Made by a program: the position numbers and the translations under genes
Shown: positions 1 through 12,422 of the stretch, piece by piece
Layout: every line of letters begins with the position of its first letter
How positions within the stretch are numbered: the first letter of the stretch is position 1
Assembly (NCBI GenBank): GCA_963703955.1
Contig: CAVPGK010000010.1
Span: 237,969 to 301,968, forward strand
Source: Nitrospirota bacterium
GTDB taxonomy: Bacteria; Nitrospirota; Nitrospiria; Nitrospirales; Nitrospiraceae
DNA length: 64,000 nucleotides
Direction of reading: 5' to 3'
The notes under the pieces: model-generated
Database searches by the model: none
What the model was told of the DNA's origin: nothing
Seen by the model: only the letters and a program-made list of their open reading frames with translations

Positions 1-2301
1 CTTTTTCGGCTCATGATATCACGGCCGGCTCAGAGAACGAACTGCAGGCCGCAGTTGCGGGTCATACCGACCATGTCGACCTCCCCATCGTTATCGAATC
101 CTCGAACTACATGAAGAATATTCTAAGACGCGCTGCGACCGGCGAAAGCCCTAAGCAGCTCATCGCCAACCTTGAAGCTTATCTGCGTTCCCATGCGTCG
201 AATGTGTGGGAAAACTCCTGGGTCCGGTTACCTGTTTCAACACTGACGCCTTTTGCACTCAATCTCTTGCGCCGTGACATGACCGAGGATAAACGCGACG
301 CCTGTGGCGCTCCACGCAAAGACGTATCGCGGTTTTTTTTCCCAACAAAGGCAAGATTGGCTGCGAGTGCCAGTCAGCTACCTGCTGAAACTCGCCCTGG
401 CGCAGGCCATTAGCGATGAGGGTGCGGCTCACCCGCTCCTCATGAAGGCGGGCGAGCGCTTCTTGGCGCACTTCCTCAATGATAATAGCTCGCCGGAAAC
501 GTTTTCCTTCTACGTCATACCTTTGACTCCTGAGACCGGCATGGGGCGGGCTGTTGCGAAAGAAATGGCGCAGCGGTTCTTGCTGACTCAGCTTCTTGTT
601 ATGTACGCGAACGTCCGTTTCGGGTTGAAGGATTCCGGCCAGCGCGCTCTGATCTATTTCGCGCCACATCCACCAATTCGACAGAAGGAGCTCAATTCGC
701 TGATTTCCGACTCCTTCTATCGGGAGCTGTTCATGAACCCATGCTTGTCAGGGTGGGATCGTGGTGAGGACAAGTTCCGCTACATGCACCTCTGCCATCA
801 GATGCTGTCCCGGAGCCAGCTCAACGCCGTGATCAAGCTCAGAGATGCCGGTATCATCACGCGAAATCTGGTTGTACTTCCGTCTACGTCCAATACCAGT
901 TTGGCCAACAACGGCACGCACCTGAGCTTGGGCAGCCGAACGCTGACGAGGCTACTGCAAGACTGCTCGCCCGCCTTCACTGAGCAACATGAGAAATATG
1001 TGGGCGATCTCGTCATCAAGATCGCAGAGCATTTCTTTCCTCTCTTTGTCGGGACCTATAGCGCGGCACCGTATCGGCTGGATTTCTGGGATTTCCATCC
1101 AGAAAAAGCGCTCGGGTTTCTTCCTCATGAGCTGGAGGACACACATCTACGGATGCTCTGGCGTCGGTGGAAAAAGAAGGCCGGTCTCAGTGTCTTCGGA
1201 CATCCGATCACGCCGCTGGGCCCGCTTTGGCTGGATAAGGCCACGAGTGCCATCTTTCGGTTGAAAGGCGATTTTGTTCCGGACTTTCGCTTGATCGATT
1301 ATCTGGTGGCGTTGCTGAGCACAAGTGAAAGCCCCGCGCACGACGGTAGGCTTGGGAACGATCAGCGGTTGAAGCGCGACCTCGCCCAGCTCGGCGTCTT
1401 CGACGAATCAATGTCGCTGTACCTCCTCTACAAGCTTCGCAGCTATGCAGCCATGGGTTTTTCGGGATTCGAGGGCCGCCAATACAGTCTCTTTGAGAGC
1501 CTGGTCGACGATATGGGGGATGCTGCGAGTTTGCAGGCTCTCGTGACCGCGCTCGCCTTCAAATATGTCGTAGAAGGAATTATCCGACACACGGATATTC
1601 CCGATGATCCTCTCACGGAGAGCGAACGCCGGCAGATGATATTCGGGACTGCGATCGGAATCCCGACCTGCAATGTGCGACATAACAGCCCTAATTCATT
1701 CCTGATGAAAATTCTCTCGAAGACTCAGAAGACGCGGCTGAGCCGGCGGTACGCCGATCACCTGCGTGTCCGACTGTCTGATTATCAATGGGCCCTTTTA
1801 GTCACACTCGAGGAAGATGGGGTGGACATCATCGAGCAATTCGGCCTGCGGGAGGTTATCAATCGGCTGAGAGAACGGCTTCTGAATTCCGAGCACCACG
1901 GGGTGGCCGGGAAATTGACCGCTGGCATTTTGAGGGAAGCCGGAGCGCGCTCAGCGATGAGCCTATCAGGGGACGAATTCAACGTCGCAGCCGAATCCTA
2001 TTATCGGGAAACGTTACGTCTGCGTCACCTCATCGAAGCGTTTGAAGTCCTCGAAAACGGTGTCGGCCAAATTGATACGGCGAAGAGCAGTACTGACGAA
2101 CAGTACCGCCGAGCGATGACGACCGTGCTTGGACCGAAGAGCGGCACCCAGTTTCTTCAAGAGGCCAAGGAAGAGCTCATCCGGGAGGACGCAGACTCCC
2201 GCACATTGCAGCTATGCATCTACCTAACGTTGCTCATCATCTGCCGAGATCGGGAAATCGCCGTGGCGGCGATGGCAGAGGCAGAGCGGGACTCGACGTG
2301 A
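1..2301 (+). CDS. Large conserved hypothetical protein (>760 aa, 5' end outside window), putative carboxylate-amine ligase of the GCS/GS-like fold; one frameshift at the poly-T run 333-340
   Basis: The frame starting at nt 3 is open (FSAHDITAGSENELQAAV...) and continues through ORF 111..413. It joins ORF 304..2301 if one T is removed from the T8 run. Motifs GSENE, NNGTHLSLG and FEGR are present; the fold call is inference. Confidence 0.7.
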
Positions 2302-3335
2302 AGCATCAATATGTTGACCGGGAAACCTCCACCGTCCATACCGAACGGCTGTACGGAGACCGGTTTCTCACGTGGGCCTATCAGACTCCATGGGAAGACG
2401 CCGCGTGGTTTTGCAAGGCGTTGACGTCTTCCCGAACTTCCCAAATGTTGAGCTTCTTCAACTATGACGTCGAGTTCGTGGCCGCGTTAGCCGGGGTCCA
2501 TCGTTTTATCAAGTCTCTCGGAGTGGATCCTACCGAATGTCTAGAGGCCCCCGGGACGCTTAATACTCCTCGAAAGGTGTTCGAACGCAAATTGCGTTAT
2601 TGGGAAGTTCGCCCGATGGATGAGGAGAGAGCGGCCATTGTCTCTCCATGTGATGCCCGGATGCTGGTCGGTTCGTTTGCCAAAACCTCGGCGCTCTTCC
2701 TGAAAGGAAAATTCTTCGAATTGAAAGAACTCTTTGGAATGGAACGTTCTACATGGTGGGCCGACTTTGAGGCTGGCGACTTCGCGATCTTCAGACTCAC
2801 GCCCGACAAGTACCACTATAATCATCTTCCGGTTGGCGGTGTGGTCGTCGACAGGTTCGATATCCATGGCAGGTATCACTCGTGTAATCCTTCTGCCGTA
2901 GTCGTCGCATCGCCATATTCAAAGAATACGCGCGTGGTGACGATTTTGGACACTGATGTCGCAGGCGGCAGCCAGGTAGGACTGGTCGCCATGATCGAGG
3001 TTGTTGCGCTCATGATCGGCCGAATTGACCAATGCTACTGTGAATCCCGATACGACCATCCGCGCAACATTTCAAAGGGAATGTTGCTTCGCAAAGGCCA
3101 ACCGAAGAGCTTGTACCGACCCGGCAGCTCCACAACAGTCGTTGTGTTCCAGGCGGGACGGGTGTGCTTCTGTGAAGATATTGTCTGCAATCTGTCGCGC
3201 CCGTGCGTCGCCAGCCGCTTCTCGGAAGGATTCGGACGTCCGTTGGTCGAAACAGATGTAAAGGTCCGCTCAACGATTGCGTACCGGCGACAAGATCCAA
3301 CCCGGCATTCTTTGGGGGTCGCCTATGGTGAATGA
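2298..3335 (+). CDS. psd: Phosphatidylserine decarboxylase family protein
   Basis: Contains SPCDAR, RLTPDKYHYNH and the GSST self-cleavage motif. The GTG start at 2298 overlaps the upstream stop (GTGA). Confidence 0.85.
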   Translation: MKHQYVDRETSTVHTERLYGDRFLTWAYQTPWEDAAWFCKALTSSRTSQMLSFFNYDVEFVAALAGVHRFIKSLGVDPTECLEAPGTLNTPRKVFERKLRYWEVRPMDEERAAIVSPCDARMLVGSFAKTSALFLKGKFFELKELFGMERSTWWADFEAGDFAIFRLTPDKYHYNHLPVGGVVVDRFDIHGRYHSCNPSAVVVASPYSKNTRVVTILDTDVAGGSQVGLVAMIEVVALMIGRIDQCYCESRYDHPRNISKGMLLRKGQPKSLYRPGSSTTVVVFQAGRVCFCEDIVCNLSRPCVASRFSEGFGRPLVETDVKVRSTIAYRRQDPTRHSLGVAYGE

Positions 3336-4377
3336 AGTGTTTCTTCTGAGCCTTGTGATTTGCTACGCCATACTGTTTTCTTGGGCGTTTCGAACGCTGC
3401 CACAAGAGGATTGGCAATTTCTCGCCTCCCTCCCGAAGCGCAAGACTAACCTCGGAACCTGGAGCGGCCTCAATCTCACATACTATGGTTTCTTGACCGC
3501 CATGGCGGTGACGATCGCTGTCGCGTTGGCTATTGTGCTCATGGGTTCACTCTCTTTGCCGCTGATCAGCATCACAGTGCTTGTCGTTGCGCTCCTCGCC
3601 CTAACGGTTCCCGCCGCCAAACTGATTGCCCAGGCGATTGAGGACAAGATGAATACGTTTACGATCGGCGGCGCATCCTTTGTCGGGCTTATCGCGGCAC
3701 CGTGGGTGATCACACTGATCAATTCCACCCTTGCACCCCGGATGGGATTCGAATTGCCGATGTTCGGGACACTGGCTCTCCTCGCGGTCGCATACGCGTT
3801 GGGTGAAGGAACCGGACGTCTCGCTTGCATCAGTTTTGGGTGCTGCTACGGCAAACCCGTCTCGGTCGTCCCGGCATGGTGGGGCTATTTCTTTCGCTTT
3901 CGCTATTTCGCCTTCATCGGGCAGACCAAGAAGGTCGCGTACGAAGGCGGTCTGGAATCCGTTCCTGTCATCCCAGTCCAAGCCATAACAGCCGTCCTCT
4001 ACGTGGGAAGCGGGCTGCTGGGCCTAGCCCTGTTTCTCGGGGGACAGGCTCTGGCGGCCTTCATGATCACAGTCCTTATCACACAGGCGTGGCGAGCCCT
4101 TTCCGAATTGCTGCGGGCAGATTATCGCGGGCGGAGCGGGCTTTCGGCCTATCAAACCATGGCAGTGATCGGGTGCTTCTACGCGCTGATCCTTATCGTC
4201 CTGTTACCCAATGAACCAAGGAGACTCCCTGATATTGTCAGAGGTCTGACATTGCTTTGGCACCCCGCCGTCATACTGTTCCTTCAAGCCTTATGGCTGA
4301 TGATCTTCCTCTACACAGGGCGTAGCAGAGTCACTGCCTCAACAATCTCCTTTTCCATCCTTAAAGATCGTATTTGA
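3325..4377 (+). CDS. Prolipoprotein diacylglyceryl transferase (Lgt) family membrane protein, divergent
   Basis: Multi-TM protein with GRLACISFGCCYG, PVQ and WRALSELLRAD motifs resembling Lgt signatures. Overlaps the psd stop. Confidence 0.75.
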   Translation: MVNEVFLLSLVICYAILFSWAFRTLPQEDWQFLASLPKRKTNLGTWSGLNLTYYGFLTAMAVTIAVALAIVLMGSLSLPLISITVLVVALLALTVPAAKLIAQAIEDKMNTFTIGGASFVGLIAAPWVITLINSTLAPRMGFELPMFGTLALLAVAYALGEGTGRLACISFGCCYGKPVSVVPAWWGYFFRFRYFAFIGQTKKVAYEGGLESVPVIPVQAITAVLYVGSGLLGLALFLGGQALAAFMITVLITQAWRALSELLRADYRGRSGLSAYQTMAVIGCFYALILIVLLPNEPRRLPDIVRGLTLLWHPAVILFLQALWLMIFLYTGRSRVTASTISFSILKDRI

Positions 4378-4378
4378 G

Positions 4379-5143
4379 ATGATGTTCTGGTATGCGATCT
4401 CCGCCTTGGCTATCGCTGCGGGATTTGCTTCTCTCAGCCCCACTCCGGCCGTAGCTTTGAATAATCATGACTCTATTCCGGCGACCTACCCTCAATCGCT
4501 GGAGCGGGATCTCAAGATCTTGCTTGATGCCGCCCGCTCCGGTCGACAGGATAGCGATCTGTTGGCGAGGCTTGCAGAGGTCTATCTCGATCTCGGGGAT
4601 GACCTGTATGACGACGAAAAAAAACGGCATCATGCCTATGAGGAGGGAAGCCGTGCCGCTCGTCGCGCGCTTGAAATTGACGACAGGAACGCAGATGCGC
4701 ATTTTCTCTTCGCGGCAAACTTGGGAAGCGCGACACGCTTGAAAGGTCTGCCCTCTGCCGCCTGGACCCTGAAGGACATCAAGAACCACCTCGAACGAGC
4801 CATCGAATTAAGACCTGATCACGCCCCCGCGCTACAGATGATGGGAGGACTGTTGGCCGAACTTCCGTGGCTGGTCGGCGGTGATTCGCGGGCGGCTCAG
4901 CGCTATCTTGAACGGGCGATCGCCGTCGATGCGAACTACACCAATGCGCGCCTTCTGCTGGCCAAACTGTATGTCAAGCAGAACAGGCTCGACGAGGCGC
5001 GTCAGGAGCTCGAGGCAGTCATTCGCACCGCCGATCCTCACTACCGTTACGCGTGGGCAAACAAATTCAAACCCGAAGCGGAACGGCTTCTGAAAACCCT
5101 ACAGGAAAAATCAGACAGAGAACGAAGAAGACGGCCCGGCTGA
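4379..5143 (+). CDS. Secreted tetratricopeptide-repeat protein (TatT-like)
   Basis: N-terminal signal peptide and TPR-like helices (ALEIDDRNADAHF, AIELRPDHAPAL, AIAVDANYTNARLLLA). Starts 1 nt after the upstream stop. Confidence 0.75.
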   Translation: MMFWYAISALAIAAGFASLSPTPAVALNNHDSIPATYPQSLERDLKILLDAARSGRQDSDLLARLAEVYLDLGDDLYDDEKKRHHAYEEGSRAARRALEIDDRNADAHFLFAANLGSATRLKGLPSAAWTLKDIKNHLERAIELRPDHAPALQMMGGLLAELPWLVGGDSRAAQRYLERAIAVDANYTNARLLLAKLYVKQNRLDEARQELEAVIRTADPHYRYAWANKFKPEAERLLKTLQEKSDRERRRRPG

Positions 5144-9021: not shown

Positions 9022-10443
9022 TCACAACCCTTCGTAAGCGGCGATCGCCGCTGATATGGCGACCACCAAATCTTCAGGTTCCAGCGTTTCATGGTAATCG
9101 AACACGTGCGAATGGGTCTCCAAATAGGAGGTATCGAACCGACCCGCTCGAAAGTCGGCATCTTCCATAATGCGCTTCAAGAATGGAATGGTGGTCTTCA
9201 CCCCGCGCAGGACGTACTCCTCGAGAGAGCGGTGCATCCGGCTGACGGTTTCGTCCCACGTGCGGCCTCTCACCGTAAGCTTGGCGAGCAACGCGTCGTA
9301 ATACGGCGGCACGACGTAGTCCTTGTACACGGCACCATCGATGCGCACACCGATTCCGCCGGGGGAGAGATAGGCCGTGATCACCCCGGTCGACGGTCTG
9401 AAGTTGTTGCGCGGATCCTCGGCGTTGATCCGGCACTGTATGGCATGTCCCTGAAGGGTGACGTCTTCCTGCCGGATTTCCAGCGGCTCACCGGCGGCAA
9501 TGGAAATCTGCGACCGGACGATGTCCACCGCCGTGATCTGCTCCGTCACCGTGTGTTCCACCTGAATCCGCGGATTCATTTCGATGAAATAGAAGCGTCC
9601 CTCGGAGTCCAGAAGGAATTCGACGGTCCCCGCGTTATCATAATCCACAGCCCGGGCGATGGCGATGGCGGCCTCGCCCATGTCCTTGCGCAGGCGGGGA
9701 GTCAGAACCAACGACGGCGCAATCTCGATCAGCTTTTGGTGGCGCCGCTGGATCGAGCAATCGCGTTCACCGAGATGAATGACATTGCCATGCCGGTCCG
9801 CCAATATCTGGAATTCAATGTGATGCGGTCTCTCCACGTACTTTTCGATAAACACGCTCCCGTCGCCGAAGGACGCCAATGCCTCTCGAGAGGAGACCTC
9901 CATGCCGTCTCGAAGCTCCTCGTCCGAGCGGACGACCCGAAGGCCGCGACCACCTCCTCCGGCGCTGGCTTTGATCATGACCGGATAGCCGGCCGTTCGA
10001 CAAAACGCAAGCGCCTCATTGACCGCGGCCACCCCTCCGTCGGTGCCGGGCACCAGCGGGACGCCGACCTCTTTCGCCAACTCCTTTGCCTTGACCTTGT
10101 TGCCCATCATATGAATCGCCTGGGGCGAAGGACCGATGAAGGTGACTCCCGATGCCTCGCACAGGTGGGCGAACTGGGCGTTCTCAGCGAGAAATCCGTA
10201 ACCGGGGTGAATCGCGTCGGCCCCAATGCGCTGGGCCAGATCCACGATCTGCTGCATGTCCAGGAACCCCTTGACGGGACCGGGACCGACCAAGTACGCC
10301 TCGTCGGCCTTCTTGACGTAGATGCCGGTCGAATCCTGTTCGGAATAGATCGCGGCGGTGGCGATGCTCAATTCGCGGCATGCCCGGATGATCCGCATGG
10401 CGATTTCACCACGGTTGGCCACAAGAATTTTCTTAAACATCAT
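9022..10443 (-). CDS. pycA: Biotin carboxylase subunit (pyruvate carboxylase subunit A)
   Basis: KILVANRGEIA, HPGYGFLAEN, GGGGRG, ERDCSIQRRHQK and EMNPRIQVEH motifs. Confidence 0.9.
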   Translation of the reverse strand: MMFKKILVANRGEIAMRIIRACRELSIATAAIYSEQDSTGIYVKKADEAYLVGPGPVKGFLDMQQIVDLAQRIGADAIHPGYGFLAENAQFAHLCEASGVTFIGPSPQAIHMMGNKVKAKELAKEVGVPLVPGTDGGVAAVNEALAFCRTAGYPVMIKASAGGGGRGLRVVRSDEELRDGMEVSSREALASFGDGSVFIEKYVERPHHIEFQILADRHGNVIHLGERDCSIQRRHQKLIEIAPSLVLTPRLRKDMGEAAIAIARAVDYDNAGTVEFLLDSEGRFYFIEMNPRIQVEHTVTEQITAVDIVRSQISIAAGEPLEIRQEDVTLQGHAIQCRINAEDPRNNFRPSTGVITAYLSPGGIGVRIDGAVYKDYVVPPYYDALLAKLTVRGRTWDETVSRMHRSLEEYVLRGVKTTIPFLKRIMEDADFRAGRFDTSYLETHSHVFDYHETLEPEDLVVAISAAIAAYEGL

Positions 10444-10671
10444 GGAGGGCAACCACTTGGACGGCTGAAGTACTGCTGGCCGGTCGCAGAGCGAAGTAAG
10501 CTACCACAATGCCTTGAATATTGTCTATTGCTGGAGATGTGGGAGCGGCACGCGGCGATGGGTGACGAAGGAGGAGGAAAGATGGAGATGAAAGCATCGA
10601 GCAGGAGGCAATGGGTAAGTCAAAAGGCTTGGCTTCTGGCCCCTCTCCCATCGCCTCTCGCCCGACGGACC

Positions 10672-11136
10672 TTACTTGCTCTTGATCAACACAGGTCTTG
10701 ATTGGGCGCTGCCGCCTCCAGCTACCACGATCACAAAGCTCATCCCCGGTTTCGCGTTAGGAACTGTGGCCTCGATGGTCGTGTCGTTTACGTACTTGTA
10801 ATCAATTTTCGTTCCGGCAGCCGAGCTGAACGTGACCCCATGGAGACACTCTTTGGTGCCGAAATTTTCTCCCTTGATCGTGACGCGTTCGCCCGGATTC
10901 GCTTCATCCGGTTCGACCTTGGTGATCCTAGGCCGCTTTGAGCGATCACACACGGGGTCGCTGGTGATCTTGCTCTCATCGAACCCCTTTATCGATTCCG
11001 TCTCGAACAAACTGAACCCGGAACCTTCTACAGTGGATCCTTCTTCTGCGCCCCAGGCCGTTCTGGTCGTGATTGACCCCCCCGTCACCGCGACCGCGAG
11101 TATTAGGATGAAAACAGCCGAAAAATGCCTCACCAT
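10672..11136 (-). CDS. Exported IPT/TIG (Ig-like) domain protein
   Basis: Signal peptide, then PRITKVEP...PGERVTIKGENFG...TTIEATVP typical of IPT/TIG domains; GGAGG RBS. Confidence 0.75.
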   Translation of the reverse strand: MVRHFSAVFILILAVAVTGGSITTRTAWGAEEGSTVEGSGFSLFETESIKGFDESKITSDPVCDRSKRPRITKVEPDEANPGERVTIKGENFGTKECLHGVTFSSAAGTKIDYKYVNDTTIEATVPNAKPGMSFVIVVAGGGSAQSRPVLIKSK

Positions 11137-11158
11137 ACCGCCTCCTTCATAATAAAGG

Positions 11159-11992
11159 TTATGGTTTCTGGCCCAACGGAGTATAGAATTCGTTATCAAT
11201 GATGGTTTGTCCTTCCTTGCTCAGGGCAAAGGCGGCAAATGCTTCTGCCGTTGGATTGGGTTCTTTCTTGGTCAGAAGAAGAAGCGGGCGGCGGAGTTTG
11301 TACCGGCCGTCCTTGACGGGTGGTTCTTCGGCTTCGACCTTGTCGACGGGGAGCAACCGAACGGCTACGCCCGCGCTGACCGCTTCCAGAGCTTGTCCCA
11401 GCGAAATATAGGTGACGGCCGAGAGAGGAGGAAGCGTGCCCACCACGGTCTTGATGGCTTTATCATCCGGGCCGATGACTTTCGCGGAATCCGAAATCTT
11501 CCCGACAATCCCCAGGTGCTGCTCAAACGTGTCTCGAATATTGCGGTTCTTCGGCCGGTCGATGATCAAGATCTTGGTCTCCGGTCCCCCTAAGTCCGAC
11601 CAAAACTTGACCTTTCCGGAAAAGATTTCCGCAACCTGCTCTGTGGTGACTTCTTTCGTATGATTGGAGAGATTGACCATGACGGCAATGCCGTCCCAGC
11701 CGATTTGGGTCGCGCCCAAATTGGGATCTTCTCTTCCAGTCACCGCAATCTGAGCTTGACCGGACAGGACGATTTCGACCGGTTTCGAGTTTTCATCCCA
11801 CAGAACATCCACATAGGCTCGTGGATTGGCCTTCTCAAACGCTCTGGCCAACTTTTCGACCAGGTGTTGCTCGGGACCATTCCCGGCAATGGCCAATGAA
11901 CCGGAAGCGGCTCCTTCGGCAGCGTATGATGGCACATAGATCGCGACGGAGAAAGGAAGCAGAACAAGTGCGATTAGGACCTGAATGATCAT
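11159..11992 (-). CDS. PstS-like periplasmic substrate-binding protein
   Basis: IGWDGIAVMVN, EIFSGKVKFWSDLGG and GRYKLRRPLLL motifs; signal peptide; GGAGG RBS. Confidence 0.8.
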   Translation of the reverse strand: MIIQVLIALVLLPFSVAIYVPSYAAEGAASGSLAIAGNGPEQHLVEKLARAFEKANPRAYVDVLWDENSKPVEIVLSGQAQIAVTGREDPNLGATQIGWDGIAVMVNLSNHTKEVTTEQVAEIFSGKVKFWSDLGGPETKILIIDRPKNRNIRDTFEQHLGIVGKISDSAKVIGPDDKAIKTVVGTLPPLSAVTYISLGQALEAVSAGVAVRLLPVDKVEAEEPPVKDGRYKLRRPLLLLTKKEPNPTAEAFAAFALSKEGQTIIDNEFYTPLGQKP

Positions 11993-12089
11993 GGAGCCTC
12001 CTGGAGGCCAGCGTGACGCAACGCACGGCTTCGACCGCGGGGTCGACTGGGCGTGAGTTGAGCCGGTTGCGTGGGGGAGGGACACGGCT

Positions 12090-12422
12090 TCAGGGCTTGA
12101 CTTTTTTCCCATCCGCTTTCGGCGACGAGACGTTCGGTGCGCCGAAGATTTCTCCCGGTGGGGGAGGGTCGGCGCGTTTCCCGTAAGCGGGAGGCAGCTT
12201 GCTGAATTTGTGCATCCGTTCGTTCAGCTGGCTGTATGCCTTCATCTCGGCAAACCCCGTCTTGTGATCCCCCACGATTTTCGACGCGAAAGCCGACATG
12301 AGCCGCGTCGCTTTCTTCGCCTGACAATGAGGGCACACGGTGTCTTCCGCCCGCACCGTAACCGACTGGGCTACTTCAAATTGCTCGCCGCACGCTTCGC
12401 ACCGATATTCATACAGCGGCAT
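12090..12422 (-). CDS. FmdB family zinc-ribbon protein
   Basis: MPLYEYRCEACG...CPHC pattern; GGAGGAG RBS. Confidence 0.85.
   Translation of the reverse strand: MPLYEYRCEACGEQFEVAQSVTVRAEDTVCPHCQAKKATRLMSAFASKIVGDHKTGFAEMKAYSQLNERMHKFSKLPPAYGKRADPPPPGEIFGAPNVSSPKADGKKVKP

Follow-up and report, generated by a model that had tools for sequence, protein, structure and literature searches.

We describe a four-gene operon at the start of a 64,000-nt stretch of a Nitrospirota bacterium genome (GCA_963703955.1, contig CAVPGK010000010.1, positions 237,969 to 301,968 of the forward strand; this whole stretch is referred to as the window), and we propose that its first three genes encode a pathway for a phosphorus-free membrane lipid. 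Gene A encodes a protein with the glutamate-cysteine ligase (GCL) fold, gene B a pyruvoyl decarboxylase of the phosphatidylserine decarboxylase (Psd) family, gene C a membrane transferase with the Lgt fold, and gene D a secreted tetratricopeptide-repeat (TPR) protein. Judging from sequences and structural models, A, B and C probably act together: gamma-glutamylcysteine (gamma-Glu-Cys) would be made, S-diacylglycerylated from phosphatidylglycerol (PG) and decarboxylated to a zwitterionic phosphorus-free lipid, S-(diacylglyceryl)-N-(4-aminobutyryl)cysteine, that is, the lipid class reported as BACys or an isomer of it. We lean only slightly towards the fuller picture, in which an Lgt paralogue, flipped in the membrane and lacking the catalytic His, moves the core of a phospholipid to a small thiol supplied by a new ligase family, a Psd paralogue completes the zwitterion, phosphorus is recovered in the same step, and the whole is the BACys pathway.

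The four genes are on the same strand and tightly coupled (Table 1), exactly as an earlier note on this DNA had read them. There is a GTGA overlap at 2298-2301, where the stop of gene A (TGA, 2299-2301) meets the psd start (GTG at 2298), an 11-nt overlap at 3325-3335, and a 1-nt gap at 4378. The assignments made for B, C and D hold as well: gene B matches PF02666 (E 1e-34), gene C matches PF01790 (E 4e-8), and gene D has TPR repeats and a hydrophobic N-terminus. As had also been remarked, no pssA adjoins gene B; an ordinary psd-pssA pair sits on another contig. The psd tail shows a 2-nt indel difference in contigs of two public runs, so the exact length of the psd/lgt overlap is probably strain-specific. 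Scanning for sigma-70 promoters and terminators gives 1 promoter-like site versus 3.4 expected by chance, and 4 terminator-like sites versus 4.8.

The coupling of A, B and C goes far beyond chance. We confirmed at least 352 relatives of gene A in GTDB and analysed the best 80 loci, calling neighbouring open reading frames (ORFs) of at least 90 aa; counts of downstream partners use those loci with sufficient DNA beyond gene A. A psd-like gene is downstream of gene A in 66 of 68 loci (directly adjoining in 65). For the lgt-like gene the count is 65 of 67; in L014 and L016, which are the exceptions, gene C is located elsewhere in the genome. The linkage across phyla that the earlier note had asked to see is there: by their record titles, the loci belong to Nitrospirota, Desulfobacterota, Acidobacteriota, Planctomycetota and Bacillota. 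No other partner among ORFs of at least 90 aa is conserved across the 80 loci. In an even sample of 301 Desulfobacterota genomes (the phylum of Desulfatibacillum alkenivorans, discussed below), gene A is found in 35, gene C in 35, and both in 34. Among 201 genomes of the window's own phylum, gene A has a strong match in 6 (two further weak matches were ignored) and gene C in 5. Because the genes are linked and A and C occur jointly and sparsely, the module is patchy, accessory, and inherited as a unit. The separate housekeeping copies that the earlier note had wanted looked for do exist: 5/5 other carriers checked have, besides the trio, a Psd and a strong Lgt with an E-value of 1e-70 or better; in the present assembly, which is 82% complete, we found no canonical lgt. 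The sixth carrier of the own phylum, a complete genome (G185; L132/L136/L155, G185:C1:2324330-2326074), has a decayed operon in which gene A is split, B is not found behind it, the last 45 profile positions of C are left, and the TPR gene follows.

Gene A has no significant match in Pfam, NCBIfam or PDB sequence searches, and none to the GshA (PF04262), GCS2 (PF04107) or Pup ligase/Dop (PF03136) models; the four PF03136 genes of this genome all lie elsewhere, as two separate Dop/PafA pairs (G000:C1:20921-25396 and C3:30229-35049, G000 being this genome). The gene A profile gives no significant alignment with those Dop/PafA proteins (probability 0.1%), the ESM Atlas returns unnamed clusters only, and Foldseek with the gene A model returns nothing at E <= 0.001 (Dop is at rank 12, E 0.85). 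It is the comparison of folds, made with a model of an intact homologue (pLDDT 81, pTM 0.87), that places the protein: Z is 13.2 for YbdK, 13.0 for Dop, 12.7 for GshF, 12.6 for PafA, 12.0 and 11.9 for GshA, and 10.2 for plant GCL, and the controls give 5.5-7.7 for glutamine synthetases and at most 4.1 for unrelated chains. The seven GCL, Dop and PafA chains align with the model over 328-399 residues at an rmsd of 3.7-5.0, which identifies the GS/GCS fold, and the earlier guess of a GCS-fold ligase is borne out at Z 10.2-13.2. Residues conserved at 94% or more in 34 diverse sequences are those of G47-x-E49-x-E51, E204, H345, R468 and E529-x-R531; spelled out, the first reads G47-S-E49-x-E51, the His motif H345-x-S347 and the last E529-G-R531. 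Mapped by motif and secondary structure, not by residue-level superposition, they fall on or beside the predicted strands where the catalytic motifs of the superfamily sit. The published description (PMC2588565) assigns GhExE to strand 1, H-x-[NH] to strand 4, an Arg to strand 5 and E-x-[RK] to strand 6, along with acidic residues; gene A departs from them in having Ser at the h position and Ser as the third residue of the His motif. The protein has no membrane segment. We consider it very likely, given the modelled fold and these motifs, that gene A is an active ATP-dependent gamma-glutamyl-type amide ligase. In the five genomes checked there is no match to PF04262 and no full match to PF04107 (one partial match covers 69 positions), so gene A would be the likely source of gamma-Glu-Cys. 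With the carboxylate-amine ligases YbdK (1TT4), GshA (1V4G/3NZT), GshF (3LN7), Dop (9CKU) and PafA (4BJR), gene A shares the fold and the E-x-E, acidic, H-x-x, Arg and E-x-R elements; unlike them, it has about 800 aa with large insertions, is 8-15% identical, is linked to lipid genes, and has no glutathione synthetase among its constant partners. In 4 loci a gamma-glutamyl cyclotransferase gene (AIG2-like; e.g. L028:9198-9632, minus strand) is divergent from or near gene A, and its product may recycle gamma-glutamyl intermediates.

Gene B scores 120 bits against PF02666 (cut-off 22). Across 28 sequences there is no variation at D117, H171, H174 or G274-S275-S276, and the G-S-S-T cleavage motif is invariant or nearly so. 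D117/H171/H174 align with D90/H144/H147 of E. coli Psd, which belong to its Asp-His-Ser autocleavage apparatus. Either S275 or S276 may become the pyruvoyl group. The N-terminal region is kept, with a moderately amphipathic helix at residues 17-31. Gene B falls below the equivalog cut-off of housekeeping Psd (NF001941/PRK00723, 124 versus 371 bits) and shows no pssA linkage. It shares with E. coli Psd (PDB 7CNW) the Asp-His-Ser residues, the G-x-S-T motif, and a predicted decarboxylation of an alpha-amino-acid lipid head; unlike Psd, it is without a pssA partner, coexists with psd-pssA, and has a predicted substrate that is phosphate-free. Pyruvoyl decarboxylation requires a free alpha-amine beside the leaving carboxyl, and therefore it would be the glutamyl end of gamma-Glu-Cys that is decarboxylated, giving 4-aminobutyryl-cysteine (GABA-Cys).

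Gene C scores 33.3 bits against PF01790 (cut-off 24.9), and its profile finds no Lgt chain among PDB sequences. The best PDB match of its fold model (pLDDT 93) is E. coli Lgt (5AZB; Z 13.4, rmsd 3.9, 235 residues aligned), the next match being at 5.0. Gene C residues Y54, R165, G176, R257, E261 and R264 are invariant in 32/32 sequences and are the equivalents of E. coli Lgt Y26, R143, G154, R239, E243 and R246, which hold the PG head group according to the available text of two studies (PMC4728403, PMC8689077). In the same text, H103, part of the HGGL motif, is the proposed thiol base, and H103 and the signature residues N146 and E151 are reported essential in E. coli Lgt (PMC4728403, PMC8689077). 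Unlike that enzyme, gene C has V120 at the H103 site (V, L, A or I in the family), C168 for N146 and C173 for E151, and there is no His among its columns conserved at 90%; thiol activation in gene C would therefore have to work differently. Three Cys are invariant, along with E106, E161 and K203. A related case is the strongest Lgt of D. alkenivorans (L141; G231:C40:384239-384973), which has Tyr at the His103 site and the same GCCYG signature as gene C, although H103Y is reportedly inactive in E. coli Lgt. The sequence suggests that there is an Lgt subtype, akin to gene C, that does not depend on the His. The same genome has a third, weaker Lgt-like gene (L142).

The orientation of gene C in the membrane also appears to differ. 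The model has nine helices, one extra at each end relative to the canonical seven, and the available descriptions give canonical Lgt a periplasmic active site and a cationic cytoplasmic side (PMC8689077, PMC4728403). Three loops with 9-11 Lys and Arg in five canonical Lgts hold 1.4 in gene C; counted in windows set by hand on the model, the active-site side has 21.7 Lys and Arg in 144 residues and the opposite side has 2.4 in 70, a bias found in 32/32 sequences. With the charge bias reversed, the positive-inside rule would therefore put the active site on the cytoplasmic face, with the product of gene A, and the model suggests that gene C is inverted in the membrane. A canonical Lgt faces the periplasm and would therefore be separated from an ATP-dependent ligase. 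In a quick tree of 16 of the 32 gene C rows and five canonical Lgts, gene C forms its own long-branched group (SH-aLRT 99). The further differences from E. coli Lgt, with which it shares the fold and the equivalents of the PG-binding residues, are that gene C has a predicted small-molecule acceptor and is a paralogue coexisting in the genome with canonical lgt.

The product expected of these three activities coincides with a described lipid. In the available text of Ding et al. 2024 (PMC11181052), D. alkenivorans PF2803 contains BACys (N-butyramide cysteine glycerol) lipids that increase from less than 1% to about 65% of its lipids under phosphorus limitation, have ester and ether cores, and give a head ion C7H13O3N2S+ that is tentatively assigned as butyramide plus cysteine. 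PF2803 is given as DSM 16219 in the accessible portion of PMC4703814, and the DSM 16219 genome carries A-B-C (L065) with a site of the promoter motif described below upstream, the locus having been in the training set of that motif. We find that diacylglycerol (DAG) + Glu + Cys - 2 H2O - CO2 equals the published BACys formula at all seven saturated chain lengths computed (28:0 and 30:0-35:0), in a comparison covering 16 of about 59 rows of the BACys spreadsheet; three BACys rows contain one O more, which a sulfoxide or a hydroxy acyl would account for. The C7H13O3N2S+ head ion equals the RS+ ion of GABA-Cys. The neutral loss of BACys keeps only four O, which would suit a carbon-sulfur bond at sn-3, and the ester and ether cores are like those of PG, as transfer of the whole core predicts. 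The predicted product thus matches BACys in formula, head-group ion, induction under phosphorus limitation and core types, and the producer carries the trio. The earlier note had proposed a Cys-containing dipeptide, DAG attached as a thioether and a decarboxylation, ending in a phosphorus-free aminolipid or a small lipopeptide; the aminolipid agrees with the formula of a lipid class made by a trio-carrying strain, and the small lipopeptide alternative is not supported. The BACys paper, in the text available, names no genes, the word thioether is absent from the main text, and the structure is tentative.

The pathway that we propose has three steps. Gene A, according to its fold and motifs, would use ATP to join the gamma-carboxyl of Glu to the amine of Cys. 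On the cytoplasmic face, gene C would then move the diradylglyceryl group of PG to the thiol. Glycerol phosphate would be released, so that a single reaction would both consume a phospholipid and free its phosphorus. Finally gene B, as a self-cleaved pyruvoyl enzyme, would engage the glutamyl residue at its free alpha-amine, as a Schiff base, and remove its carboxyl, which would turn a net-anionic lipid into a zwitterion, as when phosphatidylserine becomes phosphatidylethanolamine. The order of the second and third steps and the donor lipid are part of the proposal.

The surroundings of the trio point to phosphate starvation. Its neighbours in the 80 loci include pstB (19), phoU (18), pstC/A (17), pstS (16), ppx (8), ppk (7), phoH (7) and a Zn-phospholipase C (7). 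A gene of the pst, phoU, ppk, ppx, phoH or phosphatase type is present in 51 of the 80 loci, and 2.3% of this genome lies within 11 kb of such a gene. An unsupervised motif search on 76 upstream regions, with this genome excluded, finds an 11-nt direct repeat, TTAACN...TT(T/C)AC, with a log-likelihood of 193 versus 64 on shuffled input. When 3153 upstream regions of this genome are ranked by the motif, a phoB-like gene comes 3rd, gene A 4th (composite score) and pstS 5th, and none of 100 column-permuted motifs ranks as high. Gene A reaches this rank only when adjacent repeats are summed; taken singly, its best site is 87th. A repeat of this type is known as a Pho box, and gene A shares it with the promoters of pstS and the phoB-like gene. 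From these neighbours and sites, A-B-C is most likely a PhoB-type phosphate-starvation operon. Other top-ranking sites of this kind are at G000:C17:357289 (minus strand), G000:C21:112243 and G000:C19:36724; the first fronts an unannotated 179-aa lipoprotein-like gene (L083:8676-9215) and the other two front two further genes, all of them candidate regulon members by their sites. Just upstream of the Pho-box-like element of gene A, on the same strand, there is a HAD-family phosphatase (L001:11104-11787, 213-896 nt before the window), which is beta-phosphoglucomutase-like (TIGR02009, 124 bits, below cut-off) and has a homologue near gene A in 7 loci (L001, L003-L006, L012, L047). It could dephosphorylate the glycerol phosphate that gene C would free.

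Glycolipids made by PlcP-Agt, betaine lipids by BtaAB, ornithine lipids by OlsBA/OlsF, and SQDG are known phosphorus-starvation modules. The trio is likewise Pho-linked and predicted to replace phospholipids, and often has such neighbours, with a GT4 fusion near it in 20/80 loci and an OlsF-like gene in 3. In the known routes the starting material is free DAG or an acyl donor; unlike them, here the glycerol core would pass directly from phospholipid to sulfur. Glyco-, betaine, ornithine and SQDG-type lipid classes are listed under phosphorus starvation in the available part of PMC11181052. The GT4 fusion has about 815 aa (L063:1580-4024, minus strand, and 19 other loci), and its N-terminal metallo-phosphoesterase-like part has no Pfam match and shows what we take to be PHP-like motifs. 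It is also present in D. alkenivorans (G231:C54:36296-38707, 50% identity), and is a candidate one-protein phospholipase and glycolipid synthase for glucuronosyl lipids, the second phosphorus-free class of that organism.

Several observations weigh against the BACys proposal. All three reactions and their order are predictions, made from sequences and models. A single strain connects the trio with BACys, the elemental formula is common to several isomers, the published structure is tentative, and row 348, one of the 16 rows compared, has two more H than the series. Because Dop, PafA and YbdK are as close to the modelled fold of gene A as GshA is, structure does not fix the amine substrate. The lack of a conserved His in gene C and the replacement of H103, N146 and E151 count against canonical activity, and the topology assignment consists of charge counts. 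The gene A copy in this genome is out of frame, and so is an allele from another run. Finally, the 2.3% background was taken from a single, incomplete genome, and the 80 loci are mutually related.

The alternative closest to our proposal keeps the trio and the lipid class and changes the order of steps or the isomer: gene B would act on free Glu or on soluble gamma-Glu-Cys before transfer, or C would make S-DAG-cysteine, B would turn it into S-DAG-cysteamine, and A would gamma-glutamylate that. Every order yields the same elemental formula, PSD-family pyruvoyl enzymes include a member with a soluble substrate (the tryptophan decarboxylase PsiD), and the gamma-glutamyl cyclotransferase gene adjoins A in 4 loci. 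We nevertheless regard it as unlikely, since a head of butyramide plus cysteine, as given in the available text of PMC11181052, fits GABA-Cys and not gamma-Glu-cysteamine, the amphipathic helix of gene B is as for an enzyme of the membrane surface, and gene A is without a membrane segment. The trio might instead make a different phosphorus-free lipid or small lipidated metabolite, with another amine or thiol acceptor, BACys coming from other genes. The Pho context and the motif would hold whatever the product, the acceptor of gene A is not fixed by its fold, and gene C, with no thiol-activating His and with its invariant Cys and acidic and Lys residues, allows other chemistry. Set against this are the exact formula, the head-fragment match, the presence of the trio in the producing strain, and the finding of no other GCL in the D. 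alkenivorans genome with the PF04262 and PF04107 models, so that this second alternative, too, seems improbable to us.

Two further readings are far less credible. In one, the trio modifies a protein or peptide, by Pup/Dop-like ligation and lipidation, for example of the TPR protein. Gene A does match Dop and PafA as well as GshA, the known substrates of Lgt are proteins, and gene D is translationally coupled to the trio here. The scheme has no place for a decarboxylase, however, gene A is separated by profile from the Dop/PafA proteins of its own genome, gene D occurs in few of the loci and is Cys-free in this genome, and no other partner is conserved (ORFs under 90 aa were outside the calls); we give this reading little chance. 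The other takes B and C as ordinary back-up copies of psd and lgt behind an unrelated ligase, in line with the family matches to PF02666 and PF01790, the failure to find a canonical lgt in the incomplete assembly, and the strongest Lgt of D. alkenivorans, which has the GCCYG signature and is likewise without His103. It is the least probable of all: canonical lgt and psd are elsewhere in all five carriers checked, A and C share 34 of the 35 genomes that each occupies, the gene C rows in the tree branch apart from canonical Lgts, and the inverted charge bias would put the active site of C away from lipoboxes. The three-gene pathway to BACys or an isomer thus remains our preferred reading.

The reading frame of gene A needs separate comment. 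Its start codon, an ATG at L001:11892, precedes the window by 108 nt, and the gene is broken at the T8 run, so that it appears as ORF 3-413 and ORF 304-2301, and the two pieces match the two halves of intact homologues of about 800 aa. The homologue search gave 3104 matches among 8000 scored candidates, of which the best 120 were inspected; among the matches listed, most are intact at about 800 aa and the nearest named ones are from Nitrospirota. A run of T7 or T10 would restore the frame, and T10 matches the spacing in the closest homologues. In four DNA runs, contigs cover the locus in pieces, and the single listed piece that bridges the T tract is a contig of depth 3 from a public soil run; identical over 304 nt in other respects, it has T9, also out of frame. 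Since gene A is frameshifted in the assembly, the local copy may be inactive; the T8 frameshift may be an assembly error, a young pseudogene or a slipping tract. That slippage of the tract serves as an on/off switch of gene A in this lineage is a possibility that we rate as rather low. A family-wide phase-variable tract is not supported, since among 116 loci scored a T-run near this place has 8 T in one and 6 in seven, those printed being in frame. Nor do the data show a generally indel-ridden assembly, with matches in two frames in 2 of 45 testable genes, gene A included. Two other ORFs look truncated and perhaps reflect further frameshifts in this assembly: a TenA-like one at L001:8049-8507 (minus strand) and a 5'-nucleotidase at L083:12401-13024 (minus strand) with 207 aa versus about 550 in its family.

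The earlier note had counted gene D into the core set, and here it did not hold: the TPR gene is present in 7/80 loci, all Nitrospirota by record title and of one lineage. Gene D matches BstC NF045602 at E 2e-8 (34 bits, cut-off 350), a homologue passes PF16811 (33.2 versus 26.5), and its ESM Atlas neighbours are named TatT. It has no Cys in this genome. The TPR body, export signal and similar size are shared with TatT/BstC (PF16811, NF045602); unlike BstC, gene D scores far under the cut-off, is limited to one operon lineage, and has no cognate transporter, TRAP or sterol, that we recognised among recurring neighbours of the trio in the 80 loci. It is possibly a periplasmic lipid carrier added on to the module. 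Other variations of the locus include a dksA/traR gene between B and C in L036, L046, L055, L059, L066, L068 and L078, several of them titled Syntrophaceae or Smithella, and the pst operon often follows. In L070, two gene A copies about 8 kb apart (1-2328 and 9971-12391) flank a GT4 fusion, an OlsF-like gene and pstS. In loci of Geobacteraceae type, a 735-aa protein (9 loci, L029:13331-15538), a 254-aa protein (10 loci, L040:7031-7795) and a DUF2062 protein (13 loci, L079:14359-14877), unannotated or DUF, recur beside the trio.

Table 1. Features of the operon, with positions counted from the first base of the window.
Feature	Position	Strand	Remarks
Pho-box-like element of gene A	146-189 nt before base 1 (L001:11811-11854; G000:C10 ~237780)		Four half-sites, 11-nt spacing
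Gene A, 5' part	1..413	+	Has the G-S-E-N-E (GhExE-type) metal/ATP motif; profile positions 32-162 (E 4e-46); true reading to near 340
T8 homopolymer, frame change of gene A	333..340	+	
Gene A, 3' part: carboxylate-amine ligase of the glutamate-cysteine-ligase fold	304..2301	+	Profile positions 157-806; soluble
Gene B: PSD-family pyruvoyl decarboxylase, paralogue of housekeeping psd	2298..3335	+	PF02666
Gene C: Lgt-fold membrane transferase, nine hydrophobic helices	3325..4377	+	PF01790 and fold; predicted inverted topology
Gene D: secreted TPR protein resembling TatT/BstC carriers	4379..5143	+	Accessory

The substitution of phosphorus-free lipids is a known strategy, and the BACys lipid itself has been described; the biosynthetic route is without precedent in the literature searched. 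Our search for the gene set or pathway found no paper naming these genes, although subscription literature and the supplementary information of Ding et al. may bear on it, and a search for BACys and the 205.064 ion found no relevant account beyond Ding et al. 2024. Phosphate-starvation control, the gene A frameshift and the apparent inversion of the Lgt copy had been missed in the earlier note.

The trio supplies candidate genes for a lipid whose share of the membrane lipids rises to about 65% in a phosphorus-starved sulfate reducer and for which we found no published biosynthesis. If the proposal is right, BACys would be a bulk membrane lipid whose head is joined through a carbon-sulfur bond, and its pathway would be present in about 12% of the Desulfobacterota sampled and, with a patchy distribution, in Nitrospirota, Acidobacteriota, Planctomycetota and Bacillota. 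For enzymology, it would mean that the carboxylate-amine ligases include a further, new family, that an enzyme of the Lgt fold can use a non-protein acceptor and do without the catalytic His, and that topology inversion has occurred naturally within a membrane enzyme family. The genes would also serve as markers of phosphorus stress in soils, sediments and aquifers, and would predict which organisms are sources of the lipid as a biomarker, and anaerobes and some Nitrospirota would have an added route to phosphorus-free membranes.

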